Shown here piece by piece: positions 18,070 to 35,897 of a stretch of 64,000 nucleotides of DNA; within the stretch, counting starts at the first letter, position 1; each line of letters opens with the position of its first letter. Source of the DNA: an uncultured Anaerolineales bacterium (GTDB lineage: Bacteria; Chloroflexota; Anaerolineae; B4-G1; SLSP01); contig CAZDDI010000003.1 of assembly GCA_964504195.1 (NCBI GenBank), positions 83,380 to 147,379 of the forward strand, read 5' to 3'. Both the position numbers and the translations under genes were made by a program. Under the pieces are notes generated by a model, which did no database searches, was not told where the DNA came from, and was given only the letters and a program-made list of their open reading frames with translations.

Positions 18070-19842
18070 ATGGTTTACCGCGCACATGTCTTGATCTGCG
18101 GGGAACCCCGTTGTGTTGAAAAGGGCGCGCGGGATGTTGAGGCGGCGCTGACCCAAAAAATACAGGAGCTGGGCCTGGAAAACGAGGTCCAAATTCTGGA
18201 AGCCAGCGCGCTAGGGCATGGCGAACAAGGCCCGGAACTGGTGGTCTACCCCGAAGGCGTCCATTACGTCAACCTGCGCCCGGAAGACGCCACGCGCATT
18301 GTTGAAGAGCATCTGTTCAAGGGACGCCCCATCGCGGAATTGCAGTACAAAGAACCGCCTTCGGAGCCGCTGCCCGCGCCATCCCACAAAGAAATCCGCG
18401 TGGTGCTGGATAAAATCGGCAAAATTGATCCCGAAAATATTGATGATTACATCGCGCTGGATGGCTATGCCGCGCTGGCGAAAGTGCTGGGCGGGATGTC
18501 CCGCGACGAGGTGCTGGTCGTGCTCAAAACGTCCGGGCTGCGCGGGCGCGGCGGGGCGGGCTTCCCTACCCACCTCAAGTGGAGTTTCGCCAAGAACGCG
18601 CCCGGCGATGTGAAATACGTCATCTGTAACGCTGATGAGGGCGACCCCGGCGCGTTCATGAACCGGCGCGTGCTCGAAGGCGACCCGCACGCCGTCATCG
18701 AAGGTATGGCGATTGCGGCGTATGTCATCGGCGCGCGGCAGGGCTATATCTATGTTCGCGCCGAGTACCCCATCGCCATCAGCACTTTGCGCGTGGCATT
18801 GGCACAGGCCCGCGAGTATGGTCTGCTGGGGGAAAACATCCTCGACACTCATTTTAGTTTCGATCTGGAAATCCGCATGGGCGCGGGGGCCTTCGTCTGT
18901 GGCGAAGAGACCGCGCTGATGAAATCCATCGAAGGCGTGCGGGGGATGCCGACCACCCGCCCGCCCTTCCCGGCCACGTCGGGCCTGTGGGGCAAGCCCT
19001 CCAACATCAACAACGTAGAGACCTACGCCAACGTGCCGCAGATTTTGCTCAAGGGCGGCGCGTGGTTTGCCTCGATGGGCACGGAGAAGAGCAAGGGCAC
19101 CAAGACCTTTGCGGTGGCCGGAAAAGTGGCGCGCACTGGCTTGATCGAAGTGCCGCTGGGCATCACCATTCGCGAAATCGTCTACGATGTGGGCGGCGGT
19201 GTGCTCGATGGCAAGAAGTTCAAGGCCGTGCAGACCGGCGGCCCGATGGGCGGTTGTATCCCAGAGAAGTATCTTGACCTGCCGGTGGATTACGAAAACC
19301 TGGCGGCCGTCGGCTCGATCATGGGTTCGGGCGGCTTCGTCGTGATGGATGAAGAAACCTGTATGGTGGATATCGCTCGCTTCTTCATGGAGTTCACGCA
19401 GGAAGAATCGTGCGGTAAATGTGTGCCGTGCCGCGTGGGCACCCGGCGGATGTTGGAGATTCTCGAACATATCTGCGCGGGCAAGGGCAAGCCCGGTGAT
19501 ATCGAGATGCTGGAAACCCTGGCCGAGAAGATCGGTTTTGGCTCGTTGTGCGGGCTGGGTCAGGGAGCGCCAAATCCGGTGCTCAGCACGCTAGAGCACT
19601 TCCGTGACGAGTACGAGGCACACATCTACGAGAAGCGCTGCCCGGCGAAGGTCTGCAAGGCCCTGATCGAGTACCGCATCGAGGCCGAGACCTGTATCGG
19701 CTGCACACGCTGCGCTCGTAACTGCCCGGTCAACGCCATTAGCGGCAAGGCCAAACAGGTGCATGTGATTGATCCTGAGACCTGCATCCGCTGCGGTATC
19801 TGCGCGCAGGTTTGTCCGGTAGACGCCGTGAAAGTTGAGTGA
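18070..19842 (+). CDS. NuoF-like NAD(P)H-binding flavoprotein subunit (HoxF/HndC/HydB-type) with N-terminal Trx-like domain and C-terminal 2x[4Fe-4S] ferredoxin domain, copy 1
   Basis: The motifs are GRGGAGFPTHLKWSF (NADH/FMN site) and ESCGKCVPCRVG ([4Fe-4S] N3). The C-terminal CIGCTRCARNCP and CIRCGICAQVCP are two ferredoxin motifs. Confidence 0.85.
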   Translation: MVYRAHVLICGEPRCVEKGARDVEAALTQKIQELGLENEVQILEASALGHGEQGPELVVYPEGVHYVNLRPEDATRIVEEHLFKGRPIAELQYKEPPSEPLPAPSHKEIRVVLDKIGKIDPENIDDYIALDGYAALAKVLGGMSRDEVLVVLKTSGLRGRGGAGFPTHLKWSFAKNAPGDVKYVICNADEGDPGAFMNRRVLEGDPHAVIEGMAIAAYVIGARQGYIYVRAEYPIAISTLRVALAQAREYGLLGENILDTHFSFDLEIRMGAGAFVCGEETALMKSIEGVRGMPTTRPPFPATSGLWGKPSNINNVETYANVPQILLKGGAWFASMGTEKSKGTKTFAVAGKVARTGLIEVPLGITIREIVYDVGGGVLDGKKFKAVQTGGPMGGCIPEKYLDLPVDYENLAAVGSIMGSGGFVVMDEETCMVDIARFFMEFTQEESCGKCVPCRVGTRRMLEILEHICAGKGKPGDIEMLETLAEKIGFGSLCGLGQGAPNPVLSTLEHFRDEYEAHIYEKRCPAKVCKALIEYRIEAETCIGCTRCARNCPVNAISGKAKQVHVIDPETCIRCGICAQVCPVDAVKVE

Positions 19843-19854
19843 CAAGGAGGCAGC

Positions 19855-20343
19855 ATGGATAAAGCGTTGACCCAAACGATACATCGGGCGCTCACGCGCC
19901 ACGCTAACAGTCAGGAATCTCTGGTGGAAATGCTGCGCGAGATCAACGCCGAGCTAGGCTATTTGAGTGCGGAGACGTTGGGCGGGTTGGCCGATGCGCT
20001 GAAATTGCCGCGCAGCCAGGTGCTCAGCGTTGCTAGCTTCTACAGTATGCTCGATTTGGAACCGCGCGGGACGCACGTCATCAAGCTGTGCCAGGACGCG
20101 CCGTGCCACGTCGCCGGCGGACAGGAGATTTGGGAGACCCTGGAGCGTGAGTTGGGGATCAGCTTTGGCGCGACTACACCGGATGGCAAATGGACGCTGC
20201 TGACGACCAGCTGCATCGGCGCGTGCGCGGTCGGGCCGGTGATGATGGTGGATGACGACATCTACGGCAATCTCACCCCGGAGCGGGTGCGGGAGATTCT
20301 CGCGCAGGTTGCCGACCAAGACCGGGCAGGAGGTAGAACATGA
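19855..20343 (+). CDS. NuoE-like [2Fe-2S] subunit (HoxE/HndA-type)
   Basis: CQDAPCHVAGG...TTSCIGACAVGPV is the NuoE 2Fe-2S cysteine pattern. A GGAGG RBS is present. Confidence 0.85.
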   Translation: MDKALTQTIHRALTRHANSQESLVEMLREINAELGYLSAETLGGLADALKLPRSQVLSVASFYSMLDLEPRGTHVIKLCQDAPCHVAGGQEIWETLERELGISFGATTPDGKWTLLTTSCIGACAVGPVMMVDDDIYGNLTPERVREILAQVADQDRAGGRT

Positions 20344-21920
20344 TACGCGCGCATGTGTTGATTTCCGGGGATGCGCTGAGCCTCTCGCGCGGCGCAGAGG
20401 AAACCCGGCTTGCCATCGAGGCAGAGCTCTCGTTTCTGGGGCTAGATAAGGAAGTGCTGGTGAGCTACACTAGCCAGGTAGAGCGCACGGATGAGTTGCC
20501 GATGGTGATGGTCTTCCCAGAGGGGATCCGGTATGGCTCAGTTCATCCGGAGGACGGTGCGTACATTGTCCAGGAGCATCTCTACAAAGGGCGTATTGTT
20601 GAACATTTGCGGTTGCCTCCGGAAATACTCTCTGGTCACATTGTACATATACCTGGCAAACTTGGCGCGCTCTACGCGCAGAAGCGCGTGGTCTTGCGCC
20701 GTGCCGGTCTGATTGATCCCACTAGTATTGAAGACTACATCGCCCACGACGGCTACTTTGCGCTGGGCAAAGCCCTCACCGAGATGCAATCGGCTGACGT
20801 GCTGCAAGCGGTAAAAGATTCCGGCTTGCAAGGTCGCGGCGGCGCGGGTTTCCCCACCGGCTTGAAATGGAGCTTCGCAGTGAACCAGCCGGGCGAGAAG
20901 TACATCGTCTGCAACGCGGATGAATCCGAGCCGGGCACGTTCAAGGATCGCCTGATCCTGGAGGGCGACCCGCACGCCGTGTTGGAAGGCATGGCCCTCG
21001 CCGGGTATGCCTGTGGCGCGGCGCAGGGCTGGATTTACATTCGCGGTGAGTATGTGCAGGCGCGCGAACGGCTCGAGCACGCCATCAAGCAGGCGGAAGA
21101 GTACGGGCTGCTGGGCGACAACATCATGGAGACCGGGTTCTCCTTCCACATCCATGTCCACGCGGGCGCGGGCGCGTATGTCTGCGGTGAGGAAACGGCT
21201 CTGCTGGAAAGCCTCGAAGGCAAACGCGGCACGCCGCGCATCCGTCCGCCGTATCCCACAGTGCGCGGTTTTCGCGATCAACCGACGCTGGTCAACAACG
21301 TGGAGACGCTAGCGAATGTGCCGGCCATTATCCTCAACGGGTCGGACTGGTTCCGCTCCATTGGGACGCACACCAGCCCTGGCACCAAGGTCTATACCAT
21401 GCTGGGCGATGTCAACATCACCGGTTTGATCGAAGTGCCGATGGGCATCACTCTCCGCGAAGTCATCGAAATCTACGGCGGCGGCGTGAAGAACGGCAAG
21501 GCCTTCAAGTGCGCGCAGACGGGCGGCGCTTCCGGCAGCATCATCCCGGCAGCGTTGCTGGATGTGCCGATGGATTTTGCTTCGATGCAGGCGCAGGGCG
21601 CGTCCCTGGGCAGCGGTGCGCTTCTGGTGTGTGACGAGGATACCGATGTGGTAGACCTGGCTTATGTGCTGGTGCGCTTCTTTGCAACTGAATCGTGCGG
21701 CAAGTGTGTGCCCTGCCGGGTGGGGTCAGCGCAAATGTTGGAGGCGCTGGAACGGCTGCGCAAGGGCTATGCCAAACCTGCCGATTTGCAGCGGCTTGAA
21801 GAGATTGCCACCCATGTTCAGGAAACCTCATTCTGCGGCCTGGGGCAGGCCGCGCCAGTGCCGATTCTTACCGGGCTACGCTTCTTCCGCGCCGAGTTCG
21901 AGGCCCGCGTACAAGCCTAG
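20340..21920 (+). CDS. Second NuoF-like flavoprotein subunit (no C-terminal ferredoxin domains; degenerate Cys-less N-terminal Trx-like domain)
   Basis: GRGGAGFPTGLKWSF and ESCGKCVPCRVG motifs. ATGA overlap with the upstream gene. Confidence 0.85.
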   Translation: MIRAHVLISGDALSLSRGAEETRLAIEAELSFLGLDKEVLVSYTSQVERTDELPMVMVFPEGIRYGSVHPEDGAYIVQEHLYKGRIVEHLRLPPEILSGHIVHIPGKLGALYAQKRVVLRRAGLIDPTSIEDYIAHDGYFALGKALTEMQSADVLQAVKDSGLQGRGGAGFPTGLKWSFAVNQPGEKYIVCNADESEPGTFKDRLILEGDPHAVLEGMALAGYACGAAQGWIYIRGEYVQARERLEHAIKQAEEYGLLGDNIMETGFSFHIHVHAGAGAYVCGEETALLESLEGKRGTPRIRPPYPTVRGFRDQPTLVNNVETLANVPAIILNGSDWFRSIGTHTSPGTKVYTMLGDVNITGLIEVPMGITLREVIEIYGGGVKNGKAFKCAQTGGASGSIIPAALLDVPMDFASMQAQGASLGSGALLVCDEDTDVVDLAYVLVRFFATESCGKCVPCRVGSAQMLEALERLRKGYAKPADLQRLEEIATHVQETSFCGLGQAAPVPILTGLRFFRAEFEARVQA

Positions 21921-24246: not shown

Positions 24247-25671
24247 ATGGCTGAGAAAATTACCATTTCACCCGTGACCCGTATCGAGGGCCACGCGAAA
24301 ATCACGATCTACGTTGGCGATGACGGGAAGGTGACGGATTCGTACTTCCATGTGGAACAGTTCCGGGGCTTCGAGAAGTTCAGCGAAGGCCGCATGTTCT
24401 ACGAAATGCCCCAGATCACGCCGCGCACCTGCGGCATCTGCCCGGTGAGCCATCACCTGGCTTCGACCAAAGCTTGTGACGTGATCGCCGGCACCGCGCC
24501 GACGCCCACCGCGCACAAGCTGCGCGATCTGATGCACATGGGGCAGATGATCCAGTCGCACGGGATGCACTTCTTCGAGCTGGCCGGCCCGGACTTCATC
24601 ATGGGCTTCGACGCCGACCCGAAGGTGCGCCATGTGGGCGGCGTCATCGGCGTGAACCCTGATCTGGCCGTGAAGGCGGTCAAGTTGCGCGCCTTCGGGC
24701 AGGAGATCATCCGCAAGCTGGGCGAGCGGCGCGTGCATCCGATCTTCGGCGTGCCGGGCGGGGTGACCCGCCCGCTCGATCCCGCCGACCGCGAGTGGAT
24801 TTTGCGCGAGGTGGACAATCACATCGCCACGACGATGGTGGGCATCTCGTTCCTCAAGAGCTGGATGCAGGATAACCACCAGATGATGGAGGAGTTCGCC
24901 GTGTTCCCCTCGGCCTACATGGGGCTGGTGCAGCCGGATGGCGCGCTGGAGCTCTATGATGGGCAGCTGAAGATGGTGGACGCGGACGGTTCATTCCTGG
25001 AGCAGTTCGATCCGGCGGACTACCTGGACTACATCGCCGAGCACGTCAATCCCTATACCTATCTCAAGGCCCCGTACTACAAAAAGCGTGGCTACGAGAA
25101 GGGCATCTATCGCGTTGGCCCGCTGGGGCGGTTGAACGTCGCCACCCACATTAACACGCCGATGGCGCAGAGCGAGATGCGGCTGTGGAAGCAGCTCAAC
25201 GGCGGTAAGCCCGTCGAGGGGACGCTGTACTTCCACTACGCGCGGCTCATCGAGACGGTGTATGCTCTGGAGCATGTGAAGGGGCTGATGGATGATCCCG
25301 ACATCCTGGGGACGGATGTGGTGGCCCCGCCCGGACACATCACCGGCGAGGGCGTGGGTGTGCTCGAGGCGCCGCGCGGTACGCTCTTCCATCACTACTG
25401 GACCGACAGCAATGGCGTAATCCAAAAGGTGAACATGATCGTCGCCACCGCCGGCAACGCCTGGGCGATGAACCACTCAGTCAACATGGCCGCCAAGCGC
25501 TATGTTGACGGCACGCAGCTCACCGAGGGGATGCTCAACCGCGTTGAGCACGCCATCCGCGCGCATGACCCGTGCCTCTCCTGCTCGACCCACGCGATAG
25601 GGCAGATGCCTATCCAGATCGAGCTCATCGGGTCAGATGGAGCTGTGCTGGATGTGTTGAAGCGGGATTAG
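24247..25671 (+). CDS. hoxH: [NiFe]-hydrogenase large subunit, HoxH-type, with cleavable C-terminal extension
   Basis: The N-terminal motif is RTCGICPVSHHLAS and the C-terminal motif is DPCLSCSTHAIGQMPIQ... The tail after His is the substrate of the maturation protease. Confidence 0.85.
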   Translation: MAEKITISPVTRIEGHAKITIYVGDDGKVTDSYFHVEQFRGFEKFSEGRMFYEMPQITPRTCGICPVSHHLASTKACDVIAGTAPTPTAHKLRDLMHMGQMIQSHGMHFFELAGPDFIMGFDADPKVRHVGGVIGVNPDLAVKAVKLRAFGQEIIRKLGERRVHPIFGVPGGVTRPLDPADREWILREVDNHIATTMVGISFLKSWMQDNHQMMEEFAVFPSAYMGLVQPDGALELYDGQLKMVDADGSFLEQFDPADYLDYIAEHVNPYTYLKAPYYKKRGYEKGIYRVGPLGRLNVATHINTPMAQSEMRLWKQLNGGKPVEGTLYFHYARLIETVYALEHVKGLMDDPDILGTDVVAPPGHITGEGVGVLEAPRGTLFHHYWTDSNGVIQKVNMIVATAGNAWAMNHSVNMAAKRYVDGTQLTEGMLNRVEHAIRAHDPCLSCSTHAIGQMPIQIELIGSDGAVLDVLKRD

Positions 25672-25778
25672 CTTTTACAAATTCCACGCGAAGCCTTGGC
25701 GGACTGAGTCTACCAGGGCTTTTGCTTTTCCAATTTAGTGATATACAATGCGCTACAGGCGAAAGTAAGGGGAGTAAT

Positions 25779-26870
25779 ATGCGCTTAAGCAAAATCTCTG
25801 TAGAAGGTTTCAAATCTCTCCAGGAAGTTAAGGACTTAAAACTGCGCAATCTTAATGTGCTTATCGGTGCAAATGGTGCAGGAAAGAGCAATTTTATTGC
25901 GCTATTTAGGCTTCTCAACCAGATGGTAAGCGGCAACTTCCAAACAGCGGTGCTGCAGCAGGGCGGAGCAAATGCGTTACTATACCTGGGTGAAAAAACC
26001 ACGCCACAAATCACCGTGCAATTAGATTTTGAGCGCAACGCTTATTATTGCGTTTGGATCCCCACTGTAGATGAACGTCTCATTTTTGCGAAGGAAACAT
26101 GCATATTCTATGGTGATCGCGTACCACAATGGGAGAAACAATTAGGAAGCGGCCATCTGGAAAGCCGGTTGCCCCAAGCCGCTCAGGAAACCAAAGAACC
26201 TGTGCTGGATTATGTTTTGCAGGGTTTGAATGCCTGGAAGGTCTATCACTTCCACGATACCAGTGACAGTGCCCTGGTTAAAAAGAGCCGTGCTCTGAAT
26301 GACAATCTATACTTGCGGCCTGATGCTGCTAATCTGGCGGCTTTTCTCTACAGGCTACAACAAAGCGCGCCTCAATATTATGCAGCTATTCGGGAGACAG
26401 TACAGCTGGTGTTCCCAGTTTTTGATGATTTCCTGCTGCGCCCGCAGCCGGAAAATGAAAATCTGATTCGGCTCGAGTGGCGCGAGCAAGGCTCAGATTA
26501 TCCATTCATGGCCTACCATTTATCCGATGGTACGTTACGTTTCATCTGTCTGGCAACTTTATTGTTACAACCGGAACTACCCCCTACCATCCTGATTGAT
26601 GAACCGGAATTGGGATTGCATCCTTATGCCATAGAAGTTTTAGCCTCGCTAATGCGCAGCGCGGCAGAGCGCACCCAATTGATTGTCGCCACGCAGTCAG
26701 TCACACTGGTCAACCATTTTACGCTGGAAGATATACTCGTTGTGGAAAACCGCAAGCGAGCAACAACGATAGAACGGTTAGACTCGGAACAGCTGAGCGA
26801 TTGGTTGGAGGATTACGCACTCGGCGAACTATGGGAAAAGAACGTCTTTGGCGGGAGGCCAACTCGATGA
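25779..26870 (+). CDS. ABC/AAA-type ATPase of the OLD/AAA_21 (SMC-like) family; candidate defense ATPase
   Basis: N-terminal Walker A NVLIGANGAGKSNF. A C-terminal Walker B/D-loop region ILIDEPELGLHP. Low GC relative to its flanks. ATGA overlap with the downstream gene. Confidence 0.75.
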   Translation: MRLSKISVEGFKSLQEVKDLKLRNLNVLIGANGAGKSNFIALFRLLNQMVSGNFQTAVLQQGGANALLYLGEKTTPQITVQLDFERNAYYCVWIPTVDERLIFAKETCIFYGDRVPQWEKQLGSGHLESRLPQAAQETKEPVLDYVLQGLNAWKVYHFHDTSDSALVKKSRALNDNLYLRPDAANLAAFLYRLQQSAPQYYAAIRETVQLVFPVFDDFLLRPQPENENLIRLEWREQGSDYPFMAYHLSDGTLRFICLATLLLQPELPPTILIDEPELGLHPYAIEVLASLMRSAAERTQLIVATQSVTLVNHFTLEDILVVENRKRATTIERLDSEQLSDWLEDYALGELWEKNVFGGRPTR

Positions 26871-27553
26871 GCGACAGTTATGCGCGCGTGAACATCATCG
26901 TTGAAGGCCATACCGAAGAAACATTCGTGCGTGATGTGTTGACGGAGCCATTGGCAGCGCAGCACGTGTTCATCACAGCTCGCCGCGTGGAAACGGGACG
27001 TTCTTCCAGGCAGATTTATCGCGGCGGCATGACCACTTATGCCAAGGCCCGCCGCGATATCATGCGCTGGTTGGCTCAAGATCGTCAAGCATATGTCACT
27101 ACCATGTTCGACCTTTACCGAATCCCACTGGATTTCCCCGATGTGCGCTTAATTCCACCAGGCATTGAACCTTACGCCAGAATTACAGCATTGGAGAAGG
27201 CATTGGAGGCTGATATCGGCATTGAGCGGTTCATCCCCTACCTGCAATTACACGAATTCGAAAACCTACTGTTCAGTGATGTGCAAGCAATTGATACAGT
27301 ATTGGGATTAAGACGCTCTCAACTACAGGCATTACAAGCCCTTCGCGAAGAGTTTACCTCACCGGAGTTGATTGATGATGGGGAGGACACGGCACCCTCC
27401 AAAAGGTTGCAGAAGCTCTACGAAGGATACGATAAATTGGCTTTCGGGCCGCGCATCGCAACCCATATTGGACTGGCAAAACTGCGCCAGGAGTGTCCTC
27501 ATTTCAATGCCTGGTTTTCTAGATTGGAAAATCTGCAATTTAGTAACCTTTAG
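26867..27553 (+). CDS. DUF4276-like small protein with Toprim-like N-terminal motif (candidate nuclease partner of the ATPase)
   Basis: The start VNIIVEGHTEETFVRDVL resembles the conserved Toprim IVEG-x-TE acidic motif. About 228 aa. Translationally coupled to the ATPase. Low GC. Confidence 0.6.
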   Translation: MSDSYARVNIIVEGHTEETFVRDVLTEPLAAQHVFITARRVETGRSSRQIYRGGMTTYAKARRDIMRWLAQDRQAYVTTMFDLYRIPLDFPDVRLIPPGIEPYARITALEKALEADIGIERFIPYLQLHEFENLLFSDVQAIDTVLGLRRSQLQALQALREEFTSPELIDDGEDTAPSKRLQKLYEGYDKLAFGPRIATHIGLAKLRQECPHFNAWFSRLENLQFSNL

Positions 27554-27558
27554 AAGCT

Positions 27559-28068
27559 ATGAACCACGCACGACGCATTCTCATCGTAGGATTCGGCAAT
27601 CAGTACCGGCGGGATGACGGCGTTGGGCCGTATGTGATCAATCTGGTGCGCGCGGCGCTGGCCCGTTCGCCTTTCGATCCGCTTGATGATGGCTTCGACA
27701 CGCTGGGTGAAACGGTGGATACCATCGTGCTGCATCAACTCGTGCCGGAGCTGGCGGAGACCTTCAAGGATTACGATCAGCTGATCTTCGTGGATGCGCA
27801 TGTGGGCGACCTGCCCGAACCCATCCGCGAGGAGCGGCTCGATGCGGCGTACACGCAGCCCTTCGTCTCGCATCAATTCCACCCCTCGACGGTGCTGGCG
27901 CTGACGCAACAGCTCTACGGGCGCGCGCCGCAGACTGTGCTGCTCTCTATTCGTGGGCACGATTTCGACTTCGGCGAGGGACTTTCGCCCGAAACTGAGG
28001 CCCTCGCGCAGGAAGTCGCGGCGCGGATTATACAGAGTATCACGGATTCTGCTTTCCCCGCACGTTGA
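27559..28068 (+). CDS. hoxW: Hydrogenase maturation endopeptidase (HoxW/HycI/HybD family)
   Basis: ILIVGFGNQYRRDDGVGPYV is the GNxxxxDDGxG motif. VDAH gives the Glu/Asp/His metal ligands. About 169 aa. Confidence 0.8.
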   Translation: MNHARRILIVGFGNQYRRDDGVGPYVINLVRAALARSPFDPLDDGFDTLGETVDTIVLHQLVPELAETFKDYDQLIFVDAHVGDLPEPIREERLDAAYTQPFVSHQFHPSTVLALTQQLYGRAPQTVLLSIRGHDFDFGEGLSPETEALAQEVAARIIQSITDSAFPAR

Positions 28069-28700
28069 AGTAGAACTGCCTCGTGCAAGTCCCCCGCGCC
28101 CCCGTGAAAAACACAGGAGCGCGCTTTTTTGCCCCCCACGCTCTTCGCGTATCATGCTTGCTCAATCCCTCAAGGTGGATGTCTTAACGACATCATTCAA
28201 GTTGCCACCCGCACTTTTGACCACAGTCGGCTGACAACGGACGACCTTTGGAATGTAAAACGTGGTCTGTCATCACTGGTCGGTGGTCTACGTCTAGAAA
28301 GTAACAATTTGGTTTAACATATCCACACTCGGTCATTCAAAACGGAATTTGGCAAGGCATTGGTATGACCTTTGCAAGGTTTAACTGTATCGGTGGAATA
28401 ATGTCACTATGCCGTTAGGTGAGATTGCGGTATAATGAACGGTGGTATTTTGTAAGCGGGAAAGCAGGTATTGGAAATGAAGCGAGACGACATCTTGCAC
28501 GCCTTAGCTCAATTTCAAGAGCTAACCCAGGTCGAATTTGGCATCACGCACAGTCGAGATTTTTAGCCACGAATCACACGAATTTTACGAACTTAGCTGA
28601 TGTTTTCGCGTTAATTTGTGAAATTCGTGGCAAATTCTGGAAAATGTCGGTAGTGAATTCGTAACTTGTCATTTGTAATCTTACAGGAGGAACTTAGTCC

Positions 28701-29063
28701 ATGAAGAGCTTAGAAGAACTACGGAAGATCAAAGAACGGGCGTTGGAGCGTCGGCAGCTGGCCGGGGCGGGGGCGCGCGCACGGGTGACGGTGGCGATGG
28801 GCACGTGCGGTATCGCTGCGGGCGCGCGGGACACCATGACGGCCATCCTCAATGAGATGGAGAAGCGTCAACTCAGCGATGTGGTGGTCACACAGACCGG
28901 ATGCATGGGCCTGTGCGAGTATGAGCCGCTGGTGCAGATCCAGGTAGGTGAGGAAGAAGTGGTCACTTACGGCAAAATTGATCCCTCTCGCGTTCCCGAA
29001 CTCATCGAGGCGCACCTGGTCAAGGGCGAACCGGTTGCAGCGTGGCAGGTGCAAACTGCCTAG
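28701..29063 (+). CDS. Small thioredoxin-like [2Fe-2S] ferredoxin-domain protein, copy 2
   Basis: 117/120 aa identical to 17568-17930. Confidence 0.7.
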   Translation: MKSLEELRKIKERALERRQLAGAGARARVTVAMGTCGIAAGARDTMTAILNEMEKRQLSDVVVTQTGCMGLCEYEPLVQIQVGEEEVVTYGKIDPSRVPELIEAHLVKGEPVAAWQVQTA

Positions 29064-29202
29064 AGCGCAGGGCGCGCGTGAGCATTCATCCGGTACAGCC
29101 CTGATGATGGGAATAGCAGCCTGAGAGCGAACTAAAGTTCGCGTTATGTTTGCTACATTGATTTGTGATCCGCTGATTTGCAGATTTTCTTGAGGAGGTA
29201 TT

Positions 29203-30975
29203 ATGGTTTACCGCGCACATGTCTTGATCTGCGGGGAACCCCGCTGTGTCGAAAAGGGCGCGCGGGACGTCGAGGCGGCGCTGACCCAAAAAATACAGGA
29301 ACTGGGCCTGGAAAACGAGGTCCAAATTCTGGAGGCCAGCGCGCTGGGGCATGGCGACCAAGGGCCGGAGCTGGTCATCTACCCCGAAGGCGTCCATTAC
29401 GTCAACGTGCGTCCGGAAGATGCGGCGCGCATTGCTGAGGAGCATCTGCTCAAAGGGCGTCCCATCGCGGAATTGCAGTACAAAGAGCCGCCGAGCGAAC
29501 CGTTGCCTGCGCCTTCTGTCAAAGAAATTCGCGTGGTGCTGGGCAAAATCGGCAAAATTGACCCGGAAAACATTGAGGATTACATCGCGCTGGATGGCTA
29601 CGCCGCACTGGCGAAGGTGTTGGGCGGCATGTCCCCCGATGATGTGCTGGCCGAGCTTAAAACATCCGGGCTGCGTGGCCGTGGTGGTGCGGGTTTCCCC
29701 ACGCACCTCAAGTGGAGCTTCGCCAAGAATGCACCCGGCGATGTGAAATACGTCATCTGTAACGCTGATGAGGGTGACCCCGGTGCGTTTATGAACCGGC
29801 GTGTGCTCGAAGGCGACCCGCACGCCGTCATCGAGGGGATGGCGATTGCGGCGTATGTCATCGGCGCGCGGCAGGGCTACATTTACGTCCGTGCCGAGTA
29901 CCCCATCGCTATCAGCACCTTGCGCGTGGCGCTGGCGCAGGCCCGCGAGTATGGGTTGCTGGGAGAGAACATCCTCGGTACCGATTTCAGCTTTGACCTG
30001 GAAATCCGCATGGGGGCCGGCGCCTTCGTCTGTGGTGAAGAGACCGCGCTGATGCAATCTATCGAAGGCGCGCGCGGGATGCCCACCACGCGCCCCCCGT
30101 TCCCCGCCACCAAGGGTTTGTGGGGCAAGCCTTCCAACATCAATAACGTGGAGACCTACGCCAATGTCCCGCAGATTTTGCTCAAGGGCGGTGCGTGGTT
30201 CGCCTCGATGGGTACGGAGAAAAGCAAGGGCACCAAGACCTTCGCCATTGCGGGGAAAGTGGAACGCACCGGGCTGGTGGAAGTGCCGTTGGGGATGACC
30301 ATCCGCGAAATCGTCTATGATGTGGGCGGTGGCGTGCTCGATGGCAAAAAGTTCAAGGCCGTGCAGACCGGCGGGCCGATGGGTGGTTGTATTCCGGAGA
30401 AGTACCTGGATTTGCCTGTGGATTACGAGAATCTTGCCGCAGTGGGTTCTATGATGGGGTCGGGCGGTTTTGTCGTGATGGACGAAGAAACCTGTATGGT
30501 GGACATCGCCCGCTTCTTCATGGAGTTCACGCAGGATGAGTCGTGCGGCAAGTGTGTGCCGTGTCGCATCGGTACGCGGCGGATGCTGGAGATTCTCAAC
30601 GATATTTGCGCGGGCAAGGGCAAGTCGGGTGATATCGAGATGCTGGAACAGTTGAGCCGCTATATCAACAAAGGCTCGTTGTGCGGCCTGGGTCAGGGTG
30701 CGCCGAACCCCGTGCTCAGTACGTTGGAACACTTCCGCGATGAGTATGAGGCGCACATCTTCGAGAAGCGCTGCCCGGCGAAAGTTTGCAAGGCCCTGAT
30801 CGAGTACAAGATCGAGCCGGACGCCTGTATCGGCTGCACGCGCTGCGCGCGCAACTGCCCGGTCAACGCCATTGCGGGTTCGCCCAAGCAAGTGCATGTG
30901 ATTGACCCTGAGACGTGCATCCGCTGTGGCATCTGCAAGCAGGTCTGCCCGGTCAACGCGGTCTACATCGAGTAG
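29203..30975 (+). CDS. NuoF-like flavoprotein subunit with C-terminal 2x[4Fe-4S] domain, copy 2 (FDH-associated)
   Basis: About 93% aa identical to 18070-19842 and has the same motifs. Confidence 0.85.
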   Translation: MVYRAHVLICGEPRCVEKGARDVEAALTQKIQELGLENEVQILEASALGHGDQGPELVIYPEGVHYVNVRPEDAARIAEEHLLKGRPIAELQYKEPPSEPLPAPSVKEIRVVLGKIGKIDPENIEDYIALDGYAALAKVLGGMSPDDVLAELKTSGLRGRGGAGFPTHLKWSFAKNAPGDVKYVICNADEGDPGAFMNRRVLEGDPHAVIEGMAIAAYVIGARQGYIYVRAEYPIAISTLRVALAQAREYGLLGENILGTDFSFDLEIRMGAGAFVCGEETALMQSIEGARGMPTTRPPFPATKGLWGKPSNINNVETYANVPQILLKGGAWFASMGTEKSKGTKTFAIAGKVERTGLVEVPLGMTIREIVYDVGGGVLDGKKFKAVQTGGPMGGCIPEKYLDLPVDYENLAAVGSMMGSGGFVVMDEETCMVDIARFFMEFTQDESCGKCVPCRIGTRRMLEILNDICAGKGKSGDIEMLEQLSRYINKGSLCGLGQGAPNPVLSTLEHFRDEYEAHIFEKRCPAKVCKALIEYKIEPDACIGCTRCARNCPVNAIAGSPKQVHVIDPETCIRCGICKQVCPVNAVYIE

Positions 30976-30995
30976 CCGAGATTGCGAGGGATAGG

Positions 30996-31475
30996 ATGAC
31001 AATGAATACAACTTTGATGGACACTGTTTTTGAGCGTTACGGGAGCGATGCAGAAGCGCTGGTCGAAATCCTCCGTGATCTGAACCAGGCTGAGGGCTAC
31101 CTCTCCCAAGAACTGATGATAGCCGTAGCTGACCGGCTGCGCTTGCCGCGCGGTCATGTGTTTAGTGTGGCTTCGTTCTATAGTATGATGAATGTAAAAC
31201 CGCGTGGGCAGCATGTGGTGCTGATGTGCCAGGATGCGCCCTGTCATATAGCTGGCGGGCGCGAGGTCTGGGACGCGCTGGAAGAGACACTGGGCATCGC
31301 CTTTGGCGAGACCTCGCCCGATGGCAAGTGGACGCTGGAAGTCGCCAGCTGCCTGGGTCTGTGCGCGGTTGGCCCGGTGGTGCAGATTGATGGTGAAGTG
31401 TACGGCAATATGACCCCAGACAAGGTGCGGGCATTGCTGGTGCGCTTCGATGGGGATGCAGGAGGTGCAGCATGA
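30996..31475 (+). CDS. NuoE-like [2Fe-2S] subunit (paralog of 19855-20343)
   Basis: CQDAPCHIAGG...ASCLGLCAVGPV. About 55% identical to the hydrogenase-operon paralog. Confidence 0.8.
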   Translation: MTMNTTLMDTVFERYGSDAEALVEILRDLNQAEGYLSQELMIAVADRLRLPRGHVFSVASFYSMMNVKPRGQHVVLMCQDAPCHIAGGREVWDALEETLGIAFGETSPDGKWTLEVASCLGLCAVGPVVQIDGEVYGNMTPDKVRALLVRFDGDAGGAA

Positions 31476-33133
31476 TCCGCGCCCGTGTGATGATTTCTGG
31501 CGACCCCATCAGCCTGGCCCATGGCGCTGAGGCGCTCAAGCTGGCGATGGAAGCGGAACTGGCTTATTACGGCCTGGAAAACGAGGTGCAGGTGGGCTTC
31601 ATCGGGCAGGTGGGCCGCCGCGACGTGCTGCCGTTTGCGCTGGTCTATCCTGAAGGTACGCTGTATGGCCCGCTGCGGCTGAGCGATGTGCCGTTCCTGG
31701 TGCAGGAGCATCTCTACAAGGGGCGCGTGGCCGAAGCGCTGTTGGCCCCGCCCGATGTATTGTCCGGTAAAATTGCCCGTCTGCCCCGGCGCGAGGGCGT
31801 GCTTTACGGGCAGCAGCGCGTGGTCTTGCGCCGCGCGGGTTTGATTGACCCCAAGAATATCGAAGAGTACATCGCGCACGATGGATATTTCGCGCTGGGT
31901 AAGGCCGTCACCGAGATGACGCCCGCCGAGGTGCTGCAAACCGTGAAAGATTCCGGCTTGCAGGGACGCGGCGGCGCAGGTTTCCCCGCCGGGGTGAAGT
32001 GGGGCTTTGTAGCTGCGCAACCGGGCGATGAGAAGTACATTGTCTGTAACGCGGATGAATCTGAGCCGGGCACGTTCAAGGATCGCCTGATCCTGGAAGG
32101 CGACCCCCACGCGGTGCTGGAAGGTATGGCCCTGGCCGGGTATGCCTGTGGCGCATCGCAGGGCTGGATTTACATTCGCGGCGAGTACACGCTGGCGAAA
32201 GAGCGCATCGAGCTGGCAATCCAGCAGGCTGAAGAGCTGGGTGTGCTGGGCAACAACCTCTTTGAGAGCGATTTCTCGTTCCATATTCACGTCCACGCGG
32301 GTGCGGGCGCGTATGTCTGCGGCGAGGAGACGGCGCTGCTGGAGAGCCTCGAAGGCAAGCGCGGCATCCCGCGCATCCGTCCGCCGTATCCACCAGTGCA
32401 GGGCTATCACCAGAAGCCCACCGCTGTCAACAACGTGGAAACGCTGGCGAACGTACCGGCGATTATCCAGAATGGCGCGGCGTGGTATCGCGGCATCGGC
32501 ACGGAAAAAAGCCCCGGCACCAAGGTCTATACTATGCTGGGCGATGTGAATGTGACGGGCCTGATCGAAGTGCCGATGGGCATTACCCTGCGCGAAGTCA
32601 TCGAAGTCTACGGCGGCGGCATGAAGGGCGAGCTGGCGTTCAAGTGCGCGCAGACCGGCGGCGCGGCGGGCAGCATCATCGCCCCGGCGCTGCTGGATGT
32701 GCCGATGGATTTCGCTACGATGCAGGCGAACGGCGCCTCTTTGGGCAGCGGCGCGTTGCTCGTCTGCGGCGAGGATAAGTGTATCGTAGACCTGGCTTAC
32801 GTCTTGATGCGCTTCTTTGCGACCGAATCGTGCGGCAAGTGCGTTCCCTGTCGTTTGGGCACGCGCCGCATGGTGGAGATTCTGGATCGCCTGCGACATG
32901 GACATGGCACGCTGGAAGACCTGGATGCGCTCGAAATAATGGCGCCGCAAGTCATTGCGACCTCGTTCTGCGGGTTGGGGCAGGGCGCGCCGGTTTCAAT
33001 CATTACCGCGCTACGCCACTTCCGCGCCGAGTTCGAGGCCCACGTCGCCGGGACCTGTCCCGCGGGCGTTTGTCCTATGCACAGTCCGGTGGCCGAGCAA
33101 CCGGTATCGCACGCCTACCTGGCGTTTGCTTAA
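31472..33133 (+). CDS. NuoF-like flavoprotein subunit (paralog of 20340-21920)
   Basis: GRGGAGFPAGVKWGF and ESCGKCVPCRLG motifs. ATGA overlap with the upstream gene. Confidence 0.85.
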   Translation: MIRARVMISGDPISLAHGAEALKLAMEAELAYYGLENEVQVGFIGQVGRRDVLPFALVYPEGTLYGPLRLSDVPFLVQEHLYKGRVAEALLAPPDVLSGKIARLPRREGVLYGQQRVVLRRAGLIDPKNIEEYIAHDGYFALGKAVTEMTPAEVLQTVKDSGLQGRGGAGFPAGVKWGFVAAQPGDEKYIVCNADESEPGTFKDRLILEGDPHAVLEGMALAGYACGASQGWIYIRGEYTLAKERIELAIQQAEELGVLGNNLFESDFSFHIHVHAGAGAYVCGEETALLESLEGKRGIPRIRPPYPPVQGYHQKPTAVNNVETLANVPAIIQNGAAWYRGIGTEKSPGTKVYTMLGDVNVTGLIEVPMGITLREVIEVYGGGMKGELAFKCAQTGGAAGSIIAPALLDVPMDFATMQANGASLGSGALLVCGEDKCIVDLAYVLMRFFATESCGKCVPCRLGTRRMVEILDRLRHGHGTLEDLDALEIMAPQVIATSFCGLGQGAPVSIITALRHFRAEFEAHVAGTCPAGVCPMHSPVAEQPVSHAYLAFA

Positions 33134-33167: not shown

Positions 33168-35897
33168 ATGTCTCAAATGATCAATCTAACCATTGATGGC
33201 AAGCGCGTCGCCGTGCCAGGTGGTTCAACGGTATTGGAAGCGGCCCAGGCCGCCGGTATTGAAATCCCGACCTTGTGCCATCATCCCGCGCTCACGCCCA
33301 CCGGCTCGTGCCGCCTGTGCGTGGTTGCGGTTGAGGGGATGCGGGGGCCGACGACGGCCTGCACCCTGCCCGCAAACGAGGGCATGGTGGTCAACACGCA
33401 CACCGACGAGGTAGTGACGCTGCGCAAGTTCGTGCTCTCGATGCTGCTCACCGATCACCCTAACGATTGTATGAAGTGTGAGGTGGACGGCAACTGCGAG
33501 TTGCAGCGCTGGGTCTATGAGTACGATGTGGAATGGCCGGTGCATAGCGGTGCGCGCCACGCCTATCCTATAGATTCTGACCCCAATCCGGTGGTCTTTG
33601 TGGATATGAATAAGTGTATCCTGTGCGGGCGCTGTGTGCGCACCTGTCAGGAGATTCAGGGCTGCGACGTGTGGAACTTCTCGCAGCGCGGGTTCGATAC
33701 GCACGTTGTCGCCGGGGCTGAGCAGCTGATGCTCGATTCCGGCTGCGAGTCCTGCGGTAACTGTGTTGCAATCTGCCCCGTCGGCGCGCTGTTCGACAAG
33801 CCTTCGATTGGGTGGGGACGCGCGGCCTATCAAGAGAAAGTCCGCACGACCTGCACCTACTGCGGCGTCGGTTGCCAGTTCGATTTCAACGTCAAAGACG
33901 GCAAGATCACGCGCGTTACCTCCGCTGAGGATGCGCCGGTCAACGGGCTGGCGTTGTGCGTGAAGGGCCGCTATGGGTGGGACTTCATCCATCGCGAGGA
34001 TCGCCTGACCGCTCCGCTTATCCGCGACGAGAGCGTGACCGACGGCCCTTGGCCGGGCTTCCGCGAGGCGAGTTGGGACGAGGCACTCGATCTGGTCGCC
34101 AGCAAGCTGACACACTACCGCGACACGACCGGCCCGGATAGCGTAGGCTATCTGAGTTCGGCGAAATGCACGAACGAAGAGAATTATTTGATGCAGAAGA
34201 TCGCGCGTGGTATCGGCAAGACCAATAACGTAGATCACTGCGCGCGCCTGTGCCACGCCTCCACGGTGGCGGGCCTGGCGACGACGTTGGGCAGCGGTGC
34301 GATGACCAACTCGATTGAAGATAGCACGATGCAGAGCAAAGTGCTCTTTGTCATCGGCTCGAACACCACCGAGCAGCACCCGGTCATCGGCACGAAGATG
34401 CGCAAGGCTGTGCGCGAGAACGGCACGAAGATCATCGTGGCCGACCCGCGCCGCATCAGCCTGACGCGCCTGCCGGGCTGCCTGCACTTGCAGCAGCGGC
34501 CTGGTACGGATATCGCGCTGGTCAACGGCCTGATGCGCGAAATCCTGGTCAACGGCTGGGAGGATGCGGAGTACATCGCCGCGCGCACGGAAGGTTTTGA
34601 GGAACTCAAAACTGTGGTGATGACGTACACGCTGGAGAAGACTGAGGAAATTACTGGTGTCCCGGCGGCGAAAATTGCTGAGGCAGCGCGCATCCTGGGC
34701 GAGAACAAGCCCGGCGCGGTCTTCTGGTCTATGGGTATCACGCAGCACACCACCGGTGTCTACAACGTGATGTCGCTCTCGAATATGCAGATGCTTTTGG
34801 GCAACCTGGGCGTCGCGGGCGGCGGTGTGAACCCGCTGCGCGGGCAGAACAATGTACAGGGTGCGTGCGACCTGGGCTGTCTGGTCAACGTCTACCCCGG
34901 CTATCAGGCCGTTACCAATCCCGATTTCAAGGCCAAGTTCGAGAAGGCCTGGGGTGTTGAGGGGCTGTCGGATAAAGTGGGTTTGACTGTGGTTGAGCAG
35001 ATGCACGCGGCGCACGATGGCCGGGTCAAAGCATTGTTCATCATGGCTGAAAACCCAATGACCTCCGACCCTGATCTCAACCATGTCAAAGAGGCGCTGG
35101 AGACGGTGGACTTCCTGGTGGTGCAGGAAATCTTCATGAGCGAGACGGCCAAGTTCGCGGATGTGATTCTGCCGGGTCTGTCGTTCGCGGAGAAAGAAGG
35201 CACGTTTACCAATACTGAGCGCCGCATCCAGCTGATTCGCAAGGCGGTGGAAGGCCCAGGCATCGCGCGCGCCGACTGGGAAATTCTCTGCGATCTGGCG
35301 ACGCGCATGGGCTATCCCATGCACTACAACAGCCCGGCGGAGATCATGGATGAGATGGCGCAGGTAACGCCGATTTATGCGGGCGTCCACTTCTCCCGTC
35401 TGGAGGCTGGTGAGCAGCTCTGCTGGCCGGTGAAGGGCGACGAGCATCCCGGCACACCGATCCTGCACATCGGACAGTTCTCGCGGGGCAAGGGCCTCTT
35501 CAAGGCGCTTGAGCACATCGAGCCGCAGGAAGCGCCCGATGCCGAGTATCCGTTCACGATGACGACAGGGCGCGTGATCTACCACTGGCACGGCGGCGAG
35601 CAGACGCGCCGTTCGGAGAGCCTGATGGCGCTCTATCCAGGGCCGCGTGTGGAAATCAACCCGGCGGACGCTTCGCGGCTGGGCGTCGTCGAAGGGGACG
35701 ACCTCAAGGTGGCCTCGCGGCGCGGCGAGTTCCACGCCAAGGCGGAAGTGACGGAGCGCGTAGAGCCAGGCATCATCTTCGGCACCTTCCACTTCCCGGA
35801 GGGTAACGTCAACTGGGCCACCGGCGCGTTCCTCGACCCCATCGCCAAGATTCCGGAGTTCAAGGTCACGGCGGTGAAAGTGGAGAAGGTCGCGTAA
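33168..35897 (+). CDS. fdhA: Formate dehydrogenase catalytic (alpha) subunit, molybdopterin-dependent, Cys-type, with fused NuoG-like N-terminal 2Fe-2S/4Fe-4S domains
   Basis: 909 aa. The N-terminus parallels the HoxU-like gene (INLTIDGKRV...CHHPALTPTGSCRLCVV). The catalytic-site block NNVDHCARLCHASTVAGL has Cys at the position occupied by Sec in FdhF-type enzymes. MopB and molybdopterin dinucleotide-binding regions are present. Confidence 0.85.
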   Translation: MSQMINLTIDGKRVAVPGGSTVLEAAQAAGIEIPTLCHHPALTPTGSCRLCVVAVEGMRGPTTACTLPANEGMVVNTHTDEVVTLRKFVLSMLLTDHPNDCMKCEVDGNCELQRWVYEYDVEWPVHSGARHAYPIDSDPNPVVFVDMNKCILCGRCVRTCQEIQGCDVWNFSQRGFDTHVVAGAEQLMLDSGCESCGNCVAICPVGALFDKPSIGWGRAAYQEKVRTTCTYCGVGCQFDFNVKDGKITRVTSAEDAPVNGLALCVKGRYGWDFIHREDRLTAPLIRDESVTDGPWPGFREASWDEALDLVASKLTHYRDTTGPDSVGYLSSAKCTNEENYLMQKIARGIGKTNNVDHCARLCHASTVAGLATTLGSGAMTNSIEDSTMQSKVLFVIGSNTTEQHPVIGTKMRKAVRENGTKIIVADPRRISLTRLPGCLHLQQRPGTDIALVNGLMREILVNGWEDAEYIAARTEGFEELKTVVMTYTLEKTEEITGVPAAKIAEAARILGENKPGAVFWSMGITQHTTGVYNVMSLSNMQMLLGNLGVAGGGVNPLRGQNNVQGACDLGCLVNVYPGYQAVTNPDFKAKFEKAWGVEGLSDKVGLTVVEQMHAAHDGRVKALFIMAENPMTSDPDLNHVKEALETVDFLVVQEIFMSETAKFADVILPGLSFAEKEGTFTNTERRIQLIRKAVEGPGIARADWEILCDLATRMGYPMHYNSPAEIMDEMAQVTPIYAGVHFSRLEAGEQLCWPVKGDEHPGTPILHIGQFSRGKGLFKALEHIEPQEAPDAEYPFTMTTGRVIYHWHGGEQTRRSESLMALYPGPRVEINPADASRLGVVEGDDLKVASRRGEFHAKAEVTERVEPGIIFGTFHFPEGNVNWATGAFLDPIAKIPEFKVTAVKVEKVA

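Follow-up and report, generated by a model that had tools for sequence, protein, structure and literature searches.

Genes and proteins at the hoxH-hoxW boundary

The window analysed here is a stretch of 64,000 nucleotides from an uncultured Anaerolineae bacterium, in which the boundary between two hydrogenase genes, hoxH and hoxW, holds a two-gene module made up of an ATPase gene and a DUF4276 gene, with the parts of this locus described below all lying on the + strand. The left flank is formed by hoxH (24247..25671; Pfam NiFeSe_Hases, precomputed PF27537 HoxH), which encodes the large subunit of a [NiFe] hydrogenase with an intact C-terminal DPCLSCSTH motif and cleavable extension, 96% identical to its counterpart in the closest related locus, L005. 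After the last base of the hoxH stop codon (25671), a 107-nt spacer leads to the ATPase gene (25779..26870), which encodes a 363-aa HEC-01A-type ABC protein of the SMC/Rad50-head-like kind. Direct reading of the sequence gives an ATGA stop/start overlap (26867..26870) between this gene and the second one (26867..27553), which encodes a 228-aa HEC-01B-type DUF4276 protein with a Toprim-like fold. Only the 5-nt spacer AAGCT (27554..27558) separates the DUF4276 stop codon from the ATG of hoxW (27559..28068), the right flank, which encodes the hydrogenase maturation endopeptidase (TIGR00072, 76 bits, above the 47.45 cutoff; 90% identical to the HoxW of L005).

The initial annotation had described the same two overlapping open reading frames (ORFs) between hoxH and hoxW, and these are confirmed, as is its view that the segment is lower in GC than its flanks. 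Its figure of 40-45% does not hold, given that segment 25672-27558 measures 48.6% and only some 300-nt windows drop to 44-45%, and its estimate of about 62% for the flanks becomes 58-63% when the flanking genes are measured. Third codon positions bring out the compositional contrast better than overall GC does, with GC3 values of 0.49 and 0.54 in the cassette genes (the second and third lowest among the 44 ORFs of the window) versus 0.71-0.86 in the flanking hox genes. The arrangement is no assembly artefact, since the identical DUF4276 protein occurs on 9 contigs, with the same neighbours at all places shown in three samples (ERZ27252295, ERZ27252296, and SRR10872647). No further recognisable defence genes were seen adjoining the cassette in the window, and no Rfam family matched positions 25000-29300 at E values up to 1.

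The ATPase combines a Walker A motif (GANGAGKS, residues 30-37), an ABC signature-like motif, and a Walker B D-E pair with an ABC-head fold, and contains ILIDEPELGLHP at residues 271-282. Its matches to Pfam AAA_21 (1e-31) and AAA_15 (3.9e-16) bear out the family assignment made earlier, and it aligns almost end to end with the PADLOC HEC-01A profile PDLC04175 (E 2.1e-150; residues 2-361 of 363, profile positions 5-362 of 363), with further matches to PADLOC mad3 (7.5e-28) and NCBIfam MADS3 (1.1e-32). The protein fits the ABC ATPases of the SMC/Rad50/OLD type: fold comparison groups it with SMC, Rad50, PtuA, AriA, and OLD, and its best PDB sequence match is the OLD protein of Thermus scotoductus. 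The catalytic motifs are conserved, all family-invariant residues are present, and both cassette ORFs are intact; a dN/dS of 0.057 against a related cassette, L090, points to purifying selection on the ATPase.

The DUF4276 protein begins MSDSYARVNIIVEGHTEETFV and matches both the Pfam DUF4276 profile (1.5e-55) and PADLOC HEC-01B (PDLC04188; E 5e-77, residues 6-224). Although a PDB sequence search with the DUF4276 profile gave no meaningful match, fold comparison worked: the structural model has a three-layer alpha/beta fold like that of solved Toprim nuclease domains, and by two methods its fold is closest to the C-terminal Toprim portion of class 2 OLD proteins. An invariant E13 lies in the VEG motif that ends strand 1, and an equally invariant E130-x-E132 follows strand 4; after strand 3 stands D82-L-Y84, in which D82 is the sole acidic residue, and the canonical Toprim DxD at this position is not evident in this DUF4276 subfamily. 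In the literature DUF4276 is treated as a Toprim member and a homologue of Mad4, and a conserved metal site has been reported for HEC-01B and DUF4276 (bioRxiv 10.1101/2024.01.29.577857 and other published work). The Pfam match and the OLD-like fold of the model uphold the Toprim-like assignment of the initial annotation, and HMM searches place the ORF in a nuclease superfamily and not in a non-nuclease family; the protein is presumed to be the nuclease effector of the pair.

Insertion and transcription at the junction

The claim that the cassette was inserted was examined against 80 related loci, and hoxW could be located in 64 of these relatives. In 51 of the 64 related Anaerolineae species hoxW lies no more than 336 nt after hoxH, at a median distance of 109 nt, and many relatives have a contiguous hoxH-hoxW-hypA-hypB order. 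A homologous pair is missing from the hoxH-hoxW junction in 62 of the 64; it adjoins hoxW in one, L084, at a different position, after hoxW. The closest relative, L005, has no pair, and the two sequences run together along the 3' arm of a hairpin up to GGGCTTTTG before they diverge. In other relatives the junction is occupied by toxin-antitoxin pairs, by a transposase gene, or by genes of other kinds; sequence comparison thus depicts the hoxH-hoxW junction of Anaerolineae as a variable spot and a recurrent landing site, also for defence-type genes. Wherever a pair is present, its GC3 (0.47-0.63) is lower than that of its host (0.77-0.85). By this comparison, and in agreement with the low GC3, the cassette very probably came into the ancestral order of hoxH and hoxW by insertion, as had been proposed, rather than being a conserved, GC-typical part of hox operons.

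As for traces of the insertion event, flanking direct repeats that could serve as a transposition signature were sought and none was convincing. A 13-nt inverted repeat (25726-25738/27519-27531; 92% complementary) was put down to chance, since the same 2.4 kb contains many other pairs that match at least as well, and blastx and blastn searches of the low-GC, 632-nt spacer after hoxW found nothing that would represent a degraded second cassette.

Directly 3' of hoxH, RNA folding reveals a terminator-like hairpin (25688..25725) that runs into UUUUGCUUUU, with a folding energy of -21.6 kcal/mol and a z score of -3.4; none of 200 shuffled sequences folds as well. A hairpin occurs at the equivalent position in the relatives that were folded, is followed by a U-tract in L005, L007, L009, and L010, and has a 3' arm, TCTACCAGGGCTTTTG, that is identical in the cassette-free L005. 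It was missed by a consensus terminator scan, and came to light through folding and comparison with relatives. Overlapping its end is a cassette-borne 5' element (25720..25778) composed of a T-rich block, TTTTGCTTTTCC, a -10-like box, TGATATACAAT (25739-25749, with TACAAT at 25744-25749), and a Shine-Dalgarno sequence, AAGGGGAG (25766-25773). As an alignment shows, the same element precedes seven related cassettes whose genomic surroundings differ; a gapped pattern failed across loci because the spacing varies, and the shorter TGANATACAAT worked, being restricted to the region upstream of these cassettes among 176 loci and having a single exact occurrence in the 64-kb window. A strict sigma-70 scan returned no + strand site upstream of the cassette. 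The element is apparently the cassette's own promoter, and we infer both promoter and terminator in silico.

At the other end of the module, the 5-nt spacer leaves no room for a separate hoxW promoter or Shine-Dalgarno sequence. A weak hairpin followed by TTTTTT lies 3' of hoxW (28095..28130) and possibly ends a cassette-hoxW transcription unit, the fold of 28060-28145 (-23.3 kcal/mol, z -2.05) being weak evidence. The initial annotation presumed co-transcription with the hox operon, which is doubtful in view of the hairpin after hoxH and the conserved promoter-like element; for the same reasons, co-transcription of the cassette with hoxW is more likely than with hoxEFUYH. We have moderate confidence in the combination of an own promoter and co-transcription with hoxW, in which case hoxW would probably now follow the two cassette genes as the third in their transcription unit. 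There is an experimental precedent for this model in the cyanobacterium Lyngbya majuscula, where foreign-looking genes likewise stand between hoxH and hoxW, and where hoxW was found by experiment to be transcribed neither from a promoter of its own nor together with hoxEFUYH, but jointly with xisH, xisI, ORF15, and ORF16 from the xisH promoter (PMC2674450). The inserted genes and the phylum differ between the two cases, and for the present locus the transcription unit is predicted from sequence.

Relation to known ATPase-Toprim systems

The module almost certainly belongs, as a new member, to HEC-01 (Hma-embedded candidate 01, PADLOC-DB), an already known family of candidate defence systems in which an ABC ATPase is paired with a TOPRIM protein (Payne et al., bioRxiv 10.1101/2024.01.29.577857). 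As in HEC-01, the A gene comes first and the B gene follows it directly on the same strand, with an overlap. HEC-01 was defined by its embedding in Hma defence systems, whereas the present pair sits in a hydrogenase gene cluster; the module type itself is known, and what is unusual is solely its repeated nesting beside hydrogenase and formate-dehydrogenase genes. The full-length HEC-01A and HEC-01B matches support the defence-like classification offered earlier, but 'defence' remains a candidate label because the single HEC-01 representative tested in Escherichia coli gave no protection against the coliphages tried (bioRxiv 10.1101/2024.01.29.577857), and we consider the balance to tip only slightly toward an antiviral role.

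The Mad3-Mad4 pair of MADS is a homologous module, composed of an AAA_15/21 ABC ATPase and a DUF4276 Toprim protein and grouped in the literature with ABC-ATPase/TOPRIM systems. The cassette ATPase scores 113.7 bits against NF047739 (MADS3), far under the 420-bit cutoff, and the cassette has no adjacent methyltransferase or other mad genes, standing alone between hoxH and hoxW. PARIS is likewise a split two-gene system, formed by the ABC ATPase AriA and the DUF4435 Toprim nuclease AriB, and provides the best-understood mechanism to borrow: on receipt of a trigger, the ATPase scaffold releases the nuclease, which cleaves tRNA. The likeness is at the level of fold, given that the cassette effector is DUF4276 and has no PADLOC AriB or Pfam DUF4435 match, and the cassette ATPase, at 363 aa, is smaller. 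[quoted passage not shown] The architectural resemblance to OLD, PARIS, and Gabija that had been noted from the sequence holds at the level of an ATPase plus a Toprim protein, as judged from the folds and the best PDB match.

The explanation we favour as a whole, and regard as likely, is that a horizontally mobile module of the HEC-01 kind was inserted at the hoxH/hoxW boundary. The ancestral boundary would have been a spacer of about 100 nt with a terminator and, presumably, a hoxW promoter, into which a compact two-gene module (about 25720 to 27553) would have arrived with its own promoter-like element and Shine-Dalgarno sequence. Because hoxW starts 5 nt past the last stop codon of the module, its expression would probably require that transcripts run on through the module, perhaps with translational coupling as well. 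By analogy with the systems above, ATP would support an ATPase dimer acting as a sensor or scaffold that keeps hold of the Toprim nuclease or licenses it; once a signal of an incoming phage or mobile element had switched the nuclease on, it would cut nucleic acid, be it DNA (as with OLD and GajA) or tRNA (as with AriB), via its conserved acidic cluster and a divalent metal, so that the infection or the cell is stopped.

Contexts of the relatives and competing explanations

The ATPase gene lies directly upstream of the DUF4276 gene in every related locus for which the upstream region is present. Relatives at 60-64% identity adjoin Lamassu, HEPN/MNT, PIN, CHAT, and STAND genes, and others are embedded ahead of PglZ or SNF2 genes. 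The family is carried by 13 plasmid records, and DUF4276 relatives number none in 50,697 phage genome records and 5 in IMG/VR, so that phages are not typical carriers of the pair. That the window and L084 cassettes simply co-diverged by vertical descent is disfavoured, as their synonymous differences are saturated (pS 0.83-0.86), whereas the hoxH and hoxW genes of the same two genomes give pS values of 0.50-0.59; a caveat to this comparison is that pS is inflated by differing GC3.

The strongest competitor of the favoured explanation, although an unlikely one in our estimation, is a selfish module of the nesting or addiction kind that does not act against viruses. It would have taken the place of the native promoter of an important host gene downstream, such that loss of the cassette would silence hoxW here and hypA, scpA, pyruvate kinase, or trpE elsewhere; the nuclease may then double as a toxin restrained by the ATPase. 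This would account for the very tight downstream junctions, which amount to 5 nt here and to an 8-nt overlap with hypA in L091 and L095/L096, and for the same-strand ORF that begins within 15 nt of the DUF4276 stop in about 18 of 76 family members. Of ten downstream ORFs checked that start at most 26 nt away, nine have a Pfam match (scpA, pyruvate kinase, trpE, an aconitase-family gene, nuoE, PIG-L, asparaginase, SNF2, and PglZ). A promoter-like element that travels with the cassette and the failure of the tested HEC-01 to protect against phages point the same way. For most family members, however, there is no such tight junction with a downstream gene, relatives reside in defence islands and within BREX-like loci, and the architecture is common to proven defence systems. 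In L184, moreover, the DUF4276 gene is reduced to about 15 codons and the ATPase gene is kept, which simple toxin-antitoxin addiction does not predict.

A second proposal, that the pair has been recruited to hydrogenase/formate-dehydrogenase biology as an accessory or regulatory factor co-expressed with hoxW and hypA, draws on the contexts of the closest subclade (DUF4276 identity of at least 66% or ATPase identity of at least 78%, plus L184 at 73%). Every resolvable member of this subclade lies within the hox-fdh-hyp supercluster, at four different positions: between hoxH and hoxW (the window), after hoxW (L084), after fdhA (L090 and L184), and directly before hypA (L091-L096). Such recurrence is not predicted by a purely random lottery of defence genes; in addition, a second, distant AAA_21 and DUF4276 pair follows hoxH in L036, and a 45%-identical relative lies 16 nt upstream of nuoEFG. 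We nevertheless hold this proposal to be very improbable, given the absence of the pair from 62 of 64 hoxH-hoxW junctions, where toxin-antitoxin pairs and a transposase gene take the same place in other species, the atypical GC3 of the pair in every lineage, the occurrence of relatives at the identity level of L184 (ATPase 73%) in defence islands, and the genomic settings of 80 more distant family members, not one of which has hox or hyp genes nearby. We also know of no step in [NiFe] maturation (the HypA-F and endopeptidase pathway) that requires an ABC ATPase plus a Toprim nuclease.

The shrinkage of the L184 DUF4276 gene to about 15 codons and the inactivity of the tested HEC-01 could suggest a decaying, functionless hitch-hiker from a past insertion, but with both ORFs intact, all family-invariant residues kept, an ATPase dN/dS of 0.057 against L090, and an identical arrangement in several independent metagenomes, this is the least credible of the explanations.

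Returning to the favoured mobile module, the four positions of its closest relatives within one supercluster of roughly 25 kb form an unexpected pattern. A wider reading, which we offer tentatively and consider rather doubtful, is that this HEC-01 lineage is a promoter-carrying nesting cassette that has landed repeatedly and independently in the Anaerolineae hydrogenase/formate-dehydrogenase/hyp supercluster. If true, such cassettes would enter the gap between a terminator and the start codon of the host gene that follows, sitting close to both and taking over the transcription of that gene (hoxW, hypA, scpA, pyruvate kinase, trpE, and nuoE are seen in the downstream position) and becoming costly to lose; the cassettes would either target these intergenic boundaries preferentially or be functionally tied, through the activity of the module, to H2/formate metabolism, and defence-type modules would use core metabolic operons, besides defence islands, as stable homes. 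The embedding of ABC-ATPase/Toprim pairs extends beyond defence loci, with family members 0-26 nt upstream of housekeeping genes, an observation relevant to the 'genomic sink' account of embedding. The Anaerolineae landing site between hoxH and hoxW parallels the experimentally characterised cyanobacterial xisHI-hoxW unit, and with foreign genes recurring at this boundary, hydrogenase maturation may come to depend on transcription from foreign DNA. Natural, conserved, and evidently selected HEC-01 copies such as the present one are reasonable candidates for a first biochemical characterisation.

Identity of the cassette and of the family to which it belongs

Listing the ORFs and reading the sequence directly both bear out the two coupled genes that the initial annotation had placed between hoxH (24247-25671, + strand) and hoxW (27559-28068, +): one for a 363-aa ATPase (25779-26870, +) and, on the same strand and joined to it by an ATGA overlap, one for a 228-aa DUF4276 protein (26867-27553, +), with spacers of 107 nt between hoxH and the cassette and 5 nt between the cassette and hoxW. 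According to NCBIfam, the flanking genes encode HoxE/F/U-type diaphorase subunits, the small and large [NiFe] subunits, and a hydrogenase maturation protease. The same proteins with the same neighbours, all identical, occur on contigs of at least three independent assemblies, and the hoxH-cassette-hoxW junctions are therefore not chimeric. The GC content of the cassette segment is indeed lower than that of the neighbouring genes (48.6% versus 58-63%), although the 40-45% originally put forward was somewhat too low; its GC at third codon positions (GC3) is 0.49 and 0.54 versus 0.71-0.86 in the neighbours, which puts the pair second and third from the bottom among the 44 plausible window genes. 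Two 13-nt stretches that bracket the cassette (25726-25738 / 27519-27531) form an inverted repeat with 92% complementarity, which is probably due to chance, comparable pairs being common in the same region.

The ATPase, with its Walker A motif GANGAGKS at residues 30-37 and ILIDEPELGLHP at residues 271-282, is matched in Pfam by AAA_21 (1e-31), AAA_15, and SMC_N, and the second protein, which begins MSDSYARVNIIVEGHTEETFV, by DUF4276 (1.5e-55), both as claimed. In PADLOC-DB the two match, end to end, the ABC ATPase HEC-01A (2.1e-150) and the TOPRIM-like protein HEC-01B (5e-77) of Hma-embedded candidate 01 (HEC-01), a family catalogued only as a candidate defence system, with weaker matches of the ATPase to AriA, mad3, AbiLi, GajA, and Old. 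The AlphaFold model of the DUF4276 protein (pLDDT 93.7) has among its fold matches AriB (7.9), GajA (7.8), and the OLD proteins of Thermus scotoductus and retron Eco8; its sole significant Foldseek match is a Xanthomonas OLD fragment, and its profile found nothing among PDB sequences. Motifs conserved across 62 ATPase homologues include Walker A, a signature-like LSDGTLR, DEPELGLHP, and a family-specific TQS. In 45 homologues of the DUF4276 protein no variation is seen at E13, E17, D82, E130, E132, E167, or K179; strand 3 of this protein is followed by D82-L-Y84, with no textbook DxD in evidence. A dN/dS of 0.057 between the ATPase and its closest relative indicates that selection acts on the protein.

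[quoted passage not shown] Taken with the PADLOC matches, this literature upholds the reading as a split OLD-like ATPase plus Toprim protein, and the cassette belongs to a known, Mad3-Mad4-like candidate family and represents no new kind of system. By analogy with PARIS, OLD, and Gabija, the ATPase would most likely serve as an ATP-driven sensor or scaffold controlling the Toprim nuclease, the sole published assay of the family being negative.

Insertion at the hoxH-hoxW junction

The junction was surveyed in one genome per species, giving 80 loci with HoxH relatives at 59-96% identity, nearly all from metagenome-assembled genomes (MAGs) of Anaerolineae or other Chloroflexota. Because hoxW lies at most 336 nt from hoxH in 51 of the 64 loci where it was located downstream (median 109 nt), because hoxH-hoxW-hypA-hypB is contiguous in many relatives, and because the closest relative, L005 (HoxH 96% identical, 85% nucleotide identity over the hox region up to the hoxH stop), does not have the pair, comparison of the junctions confirms that the cassette was inserted into what was ancestrally a short spacer. 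The junction is variable in the remaining 13 of 64 species, and in a few further ones whose locus yielded no hoxW. Its contents include further mobile or selfish genes, namely a TumE-type toxin paired with a small ORF upstream, along with genes for a methyltransferase and a carbonic anhydrase (L005:9516-11833), an MNT/HepT toxin-antitoxin pair (L018:9747-10395), and a Mutator-family transposase (L017:9684-10967), as well as an adenylate-cyclase/AAA_16 protein with a TPR protein (L029, L031, L035), DUF6585 (L041), a pentapeptide-repeat protein (L064), a CBS-domain protein (L065, L069, L070, L074), and, directly after hoxH in a Thermoflexales MAG (L036:3501-5236), a distant AAA_21-DUF4276 pair whose ATPase is 25% identical, hoxW not being found there within 8 kb. 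Depressed GC3 is shared by the toxin-antitoxin inserts that were checked, those of L005 and L018, and by the two other cassettes.

Elsewhere in the window, two paralogous modules (17568-21920 and 28701-33133), each with fdx, a 590-aa NuoF-like protein, a HoxE-like protein, and a second NuoF-like protein, head the hox genes and a 909-aa formate-dehydrogenase-like gene (33168-35897), respectively; their 79% nucleotide identity over 4.4 kb, with fdx genes about 95% identical, points to recent segmental duplication or gene conversion. Long non-coding stretches of low GC (0.42-0.48) precede both fdx genes (16950-17567 and 28069-28700) and are unlike each other save for the last ~30 nt; a search of the stretch after hoxW gave no cassette remnants, and Rfam had no match in 25000-29300. 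A 904-aa ORF (47360-50074, -) with the lowest GC3 of the window (0.465) and its 575-aa neighbour (45079-46806, -), both without a Pfam match, may mark another foreign segment.

Transcription of the cassette and of hoxW

A strong hairpin lies directly 3' of hoxH in the relatives folded, followed by a U-tract in L005, L007, L009, and L010, and is retained in the window at 25688-25725 (-21.6 kcal/mol, z -3.4). L005 has exactly the same 3' arm, TCTACCAGGGCTTTTG; past GGGCTTTTG the two genomes diverge, and the window comes to resemble what lies upstream of related cassettes from other contexts, where a T-rich block is followed by a TGAnATAcAAT box, a Shine-Dalgarno sequence, and ATG. In a set of 176 loci, TGANATACAAT was found solely in front of these cassettes. 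From this divergence and the shared cassette-specific element we infer that the left edge of the inserted DNA lies at about 25720 and that the cassette carries its own promoter. As hoxW starts 5 nt past the cassette stop codon, with no room for a promoter of its own, the likeliest present arrangement would be hoxEFUYH, a terminator, and then a cassette promoter driving ATPase-DUF4276-hoxW. Co-transcription, presumed by the initial annotation for the operon as a whole, is thus likeliest with hoxW, and is disfavoured with hoxEFUYH by the hairpin and the promoter-like element. An experimental precedent for what is here predicted from sequence comes from Lyngbya majuscula, where 3.5 kb separate hoxW from hoxH and hoxW shares a transcript, driven by the xisH promoter, with xisH-xisI-ORF15-ORF16 (PMC2674450).

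In relatives with an insert-free junction (L084:9530-9555, and the corresponding site of L012), only 6 nt separate the hoxW start codon from a preceding TACAAT box (GTGATACAATAGTCGTATG), itself similar to the -10-like box of the cassette; this spacing suggests that hoxW is translated there from a leaderless mRNA. A terminator-like hairpin of ~40 nt (CCCTCTCG...CGAGAGGG, then a T-tract) occurs on both sides of the L085 cassette (L085:150-235 and L085:2049-2140), and since the cassettes of L182 and L184, in other contexts, have it upstream too, it may travel with the cassette in this sub-lineage.

Relatives of the cassette and their neighbourhoods

The closest relatives all lie in the same hydrogenase/formate-dehydrogenase/hyp neighbourhood of related Chloroflexota, at different places: after hoxH and before hoxW in the window, after hoxW in L084, after fdhA in L090 and L184, and immediately upstream of hypA, with an 8-nt overlap into its start, in L091-L096, the last of which belongs to the same MAG as the distant pair of L036. 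In L184:8001-9200 (Chloroflexota MAG), fdhA is followed directly by an ATPase gene of 73% identity, and the DUF4276 gene is down to ~15 codons, a decaying copy that keeps the ATPase. The clustering may reflect local reshuffling of a fluid supercluster, in favour of which gene order around hoxW differs even between L005 and the window; it may also express a preference for post-terminator intergenic boundaries, or a functional tie to H2/formate metabolism. Simple co-divergence of the window and L084 cassettes is opposed by their synonymous differences (pS), which are saturated (0.83-0.86) and exceed those of hoxH and hoxW between the same genomes (0.50-0.59), a test weakened by compositional differences; this argues for separate acquisitions or allele replacement.

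A further foreign-looking gene recurs beside hydrogenase maturation genes: a Uma2-family gene (restriction-endonuclease fold) lies between hypA and hypF at L095:1814-2494, in the order cassette-hypA-Uma2-hypF, and another (ORF17) follows hoxW in L. majuscula (PMC2674450).

Relatives at 60-64% identity adjoin defence-type genes: Lamassu and HEPN/MNT genes in L182, PIN, CHAT, and DUF559 genes in L183, and STAND NTPase and HepT/MNT genes in L085. In 80 metagenome loci with DUF4276 proteins 37-59% identical, the ATPase gene is immediately upstream wherever that region is present, and none has hox or hyp genes nearby. A same-strand ORF starts within 15 nt of the DUF4276 stop in about 18 of 76 family members; nine of ten checked downstream ORFs starting at most 26 nt away have a Pfam match, comprising defence-type (PglZ, SNF2 helicase) and housekeeping genes (scpA, pyruvate kinase, trpE, an aconitase-family gene, nuoE, PIG-L, asparaginase). 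The end of one 45%-identical member (L155:368-4796) lies 16 nt upstream of a nuoE-nuoF-nuoG-like set, homologous as a module to HoxEFU; this proximity may be coincidence. The family appears in 13 plasmid records and only 5 IMG/VR contigs, and was not found in the phage genomes searched.

The value of the cassette lies in its context: a hoxH-hoxW boundary that has been recurrently invaded, nearest relatives that cluster round hydrogenase and formate-dehydrogenase genes, and a predicted, cassette-borne promoter that probably now drives hoxW.
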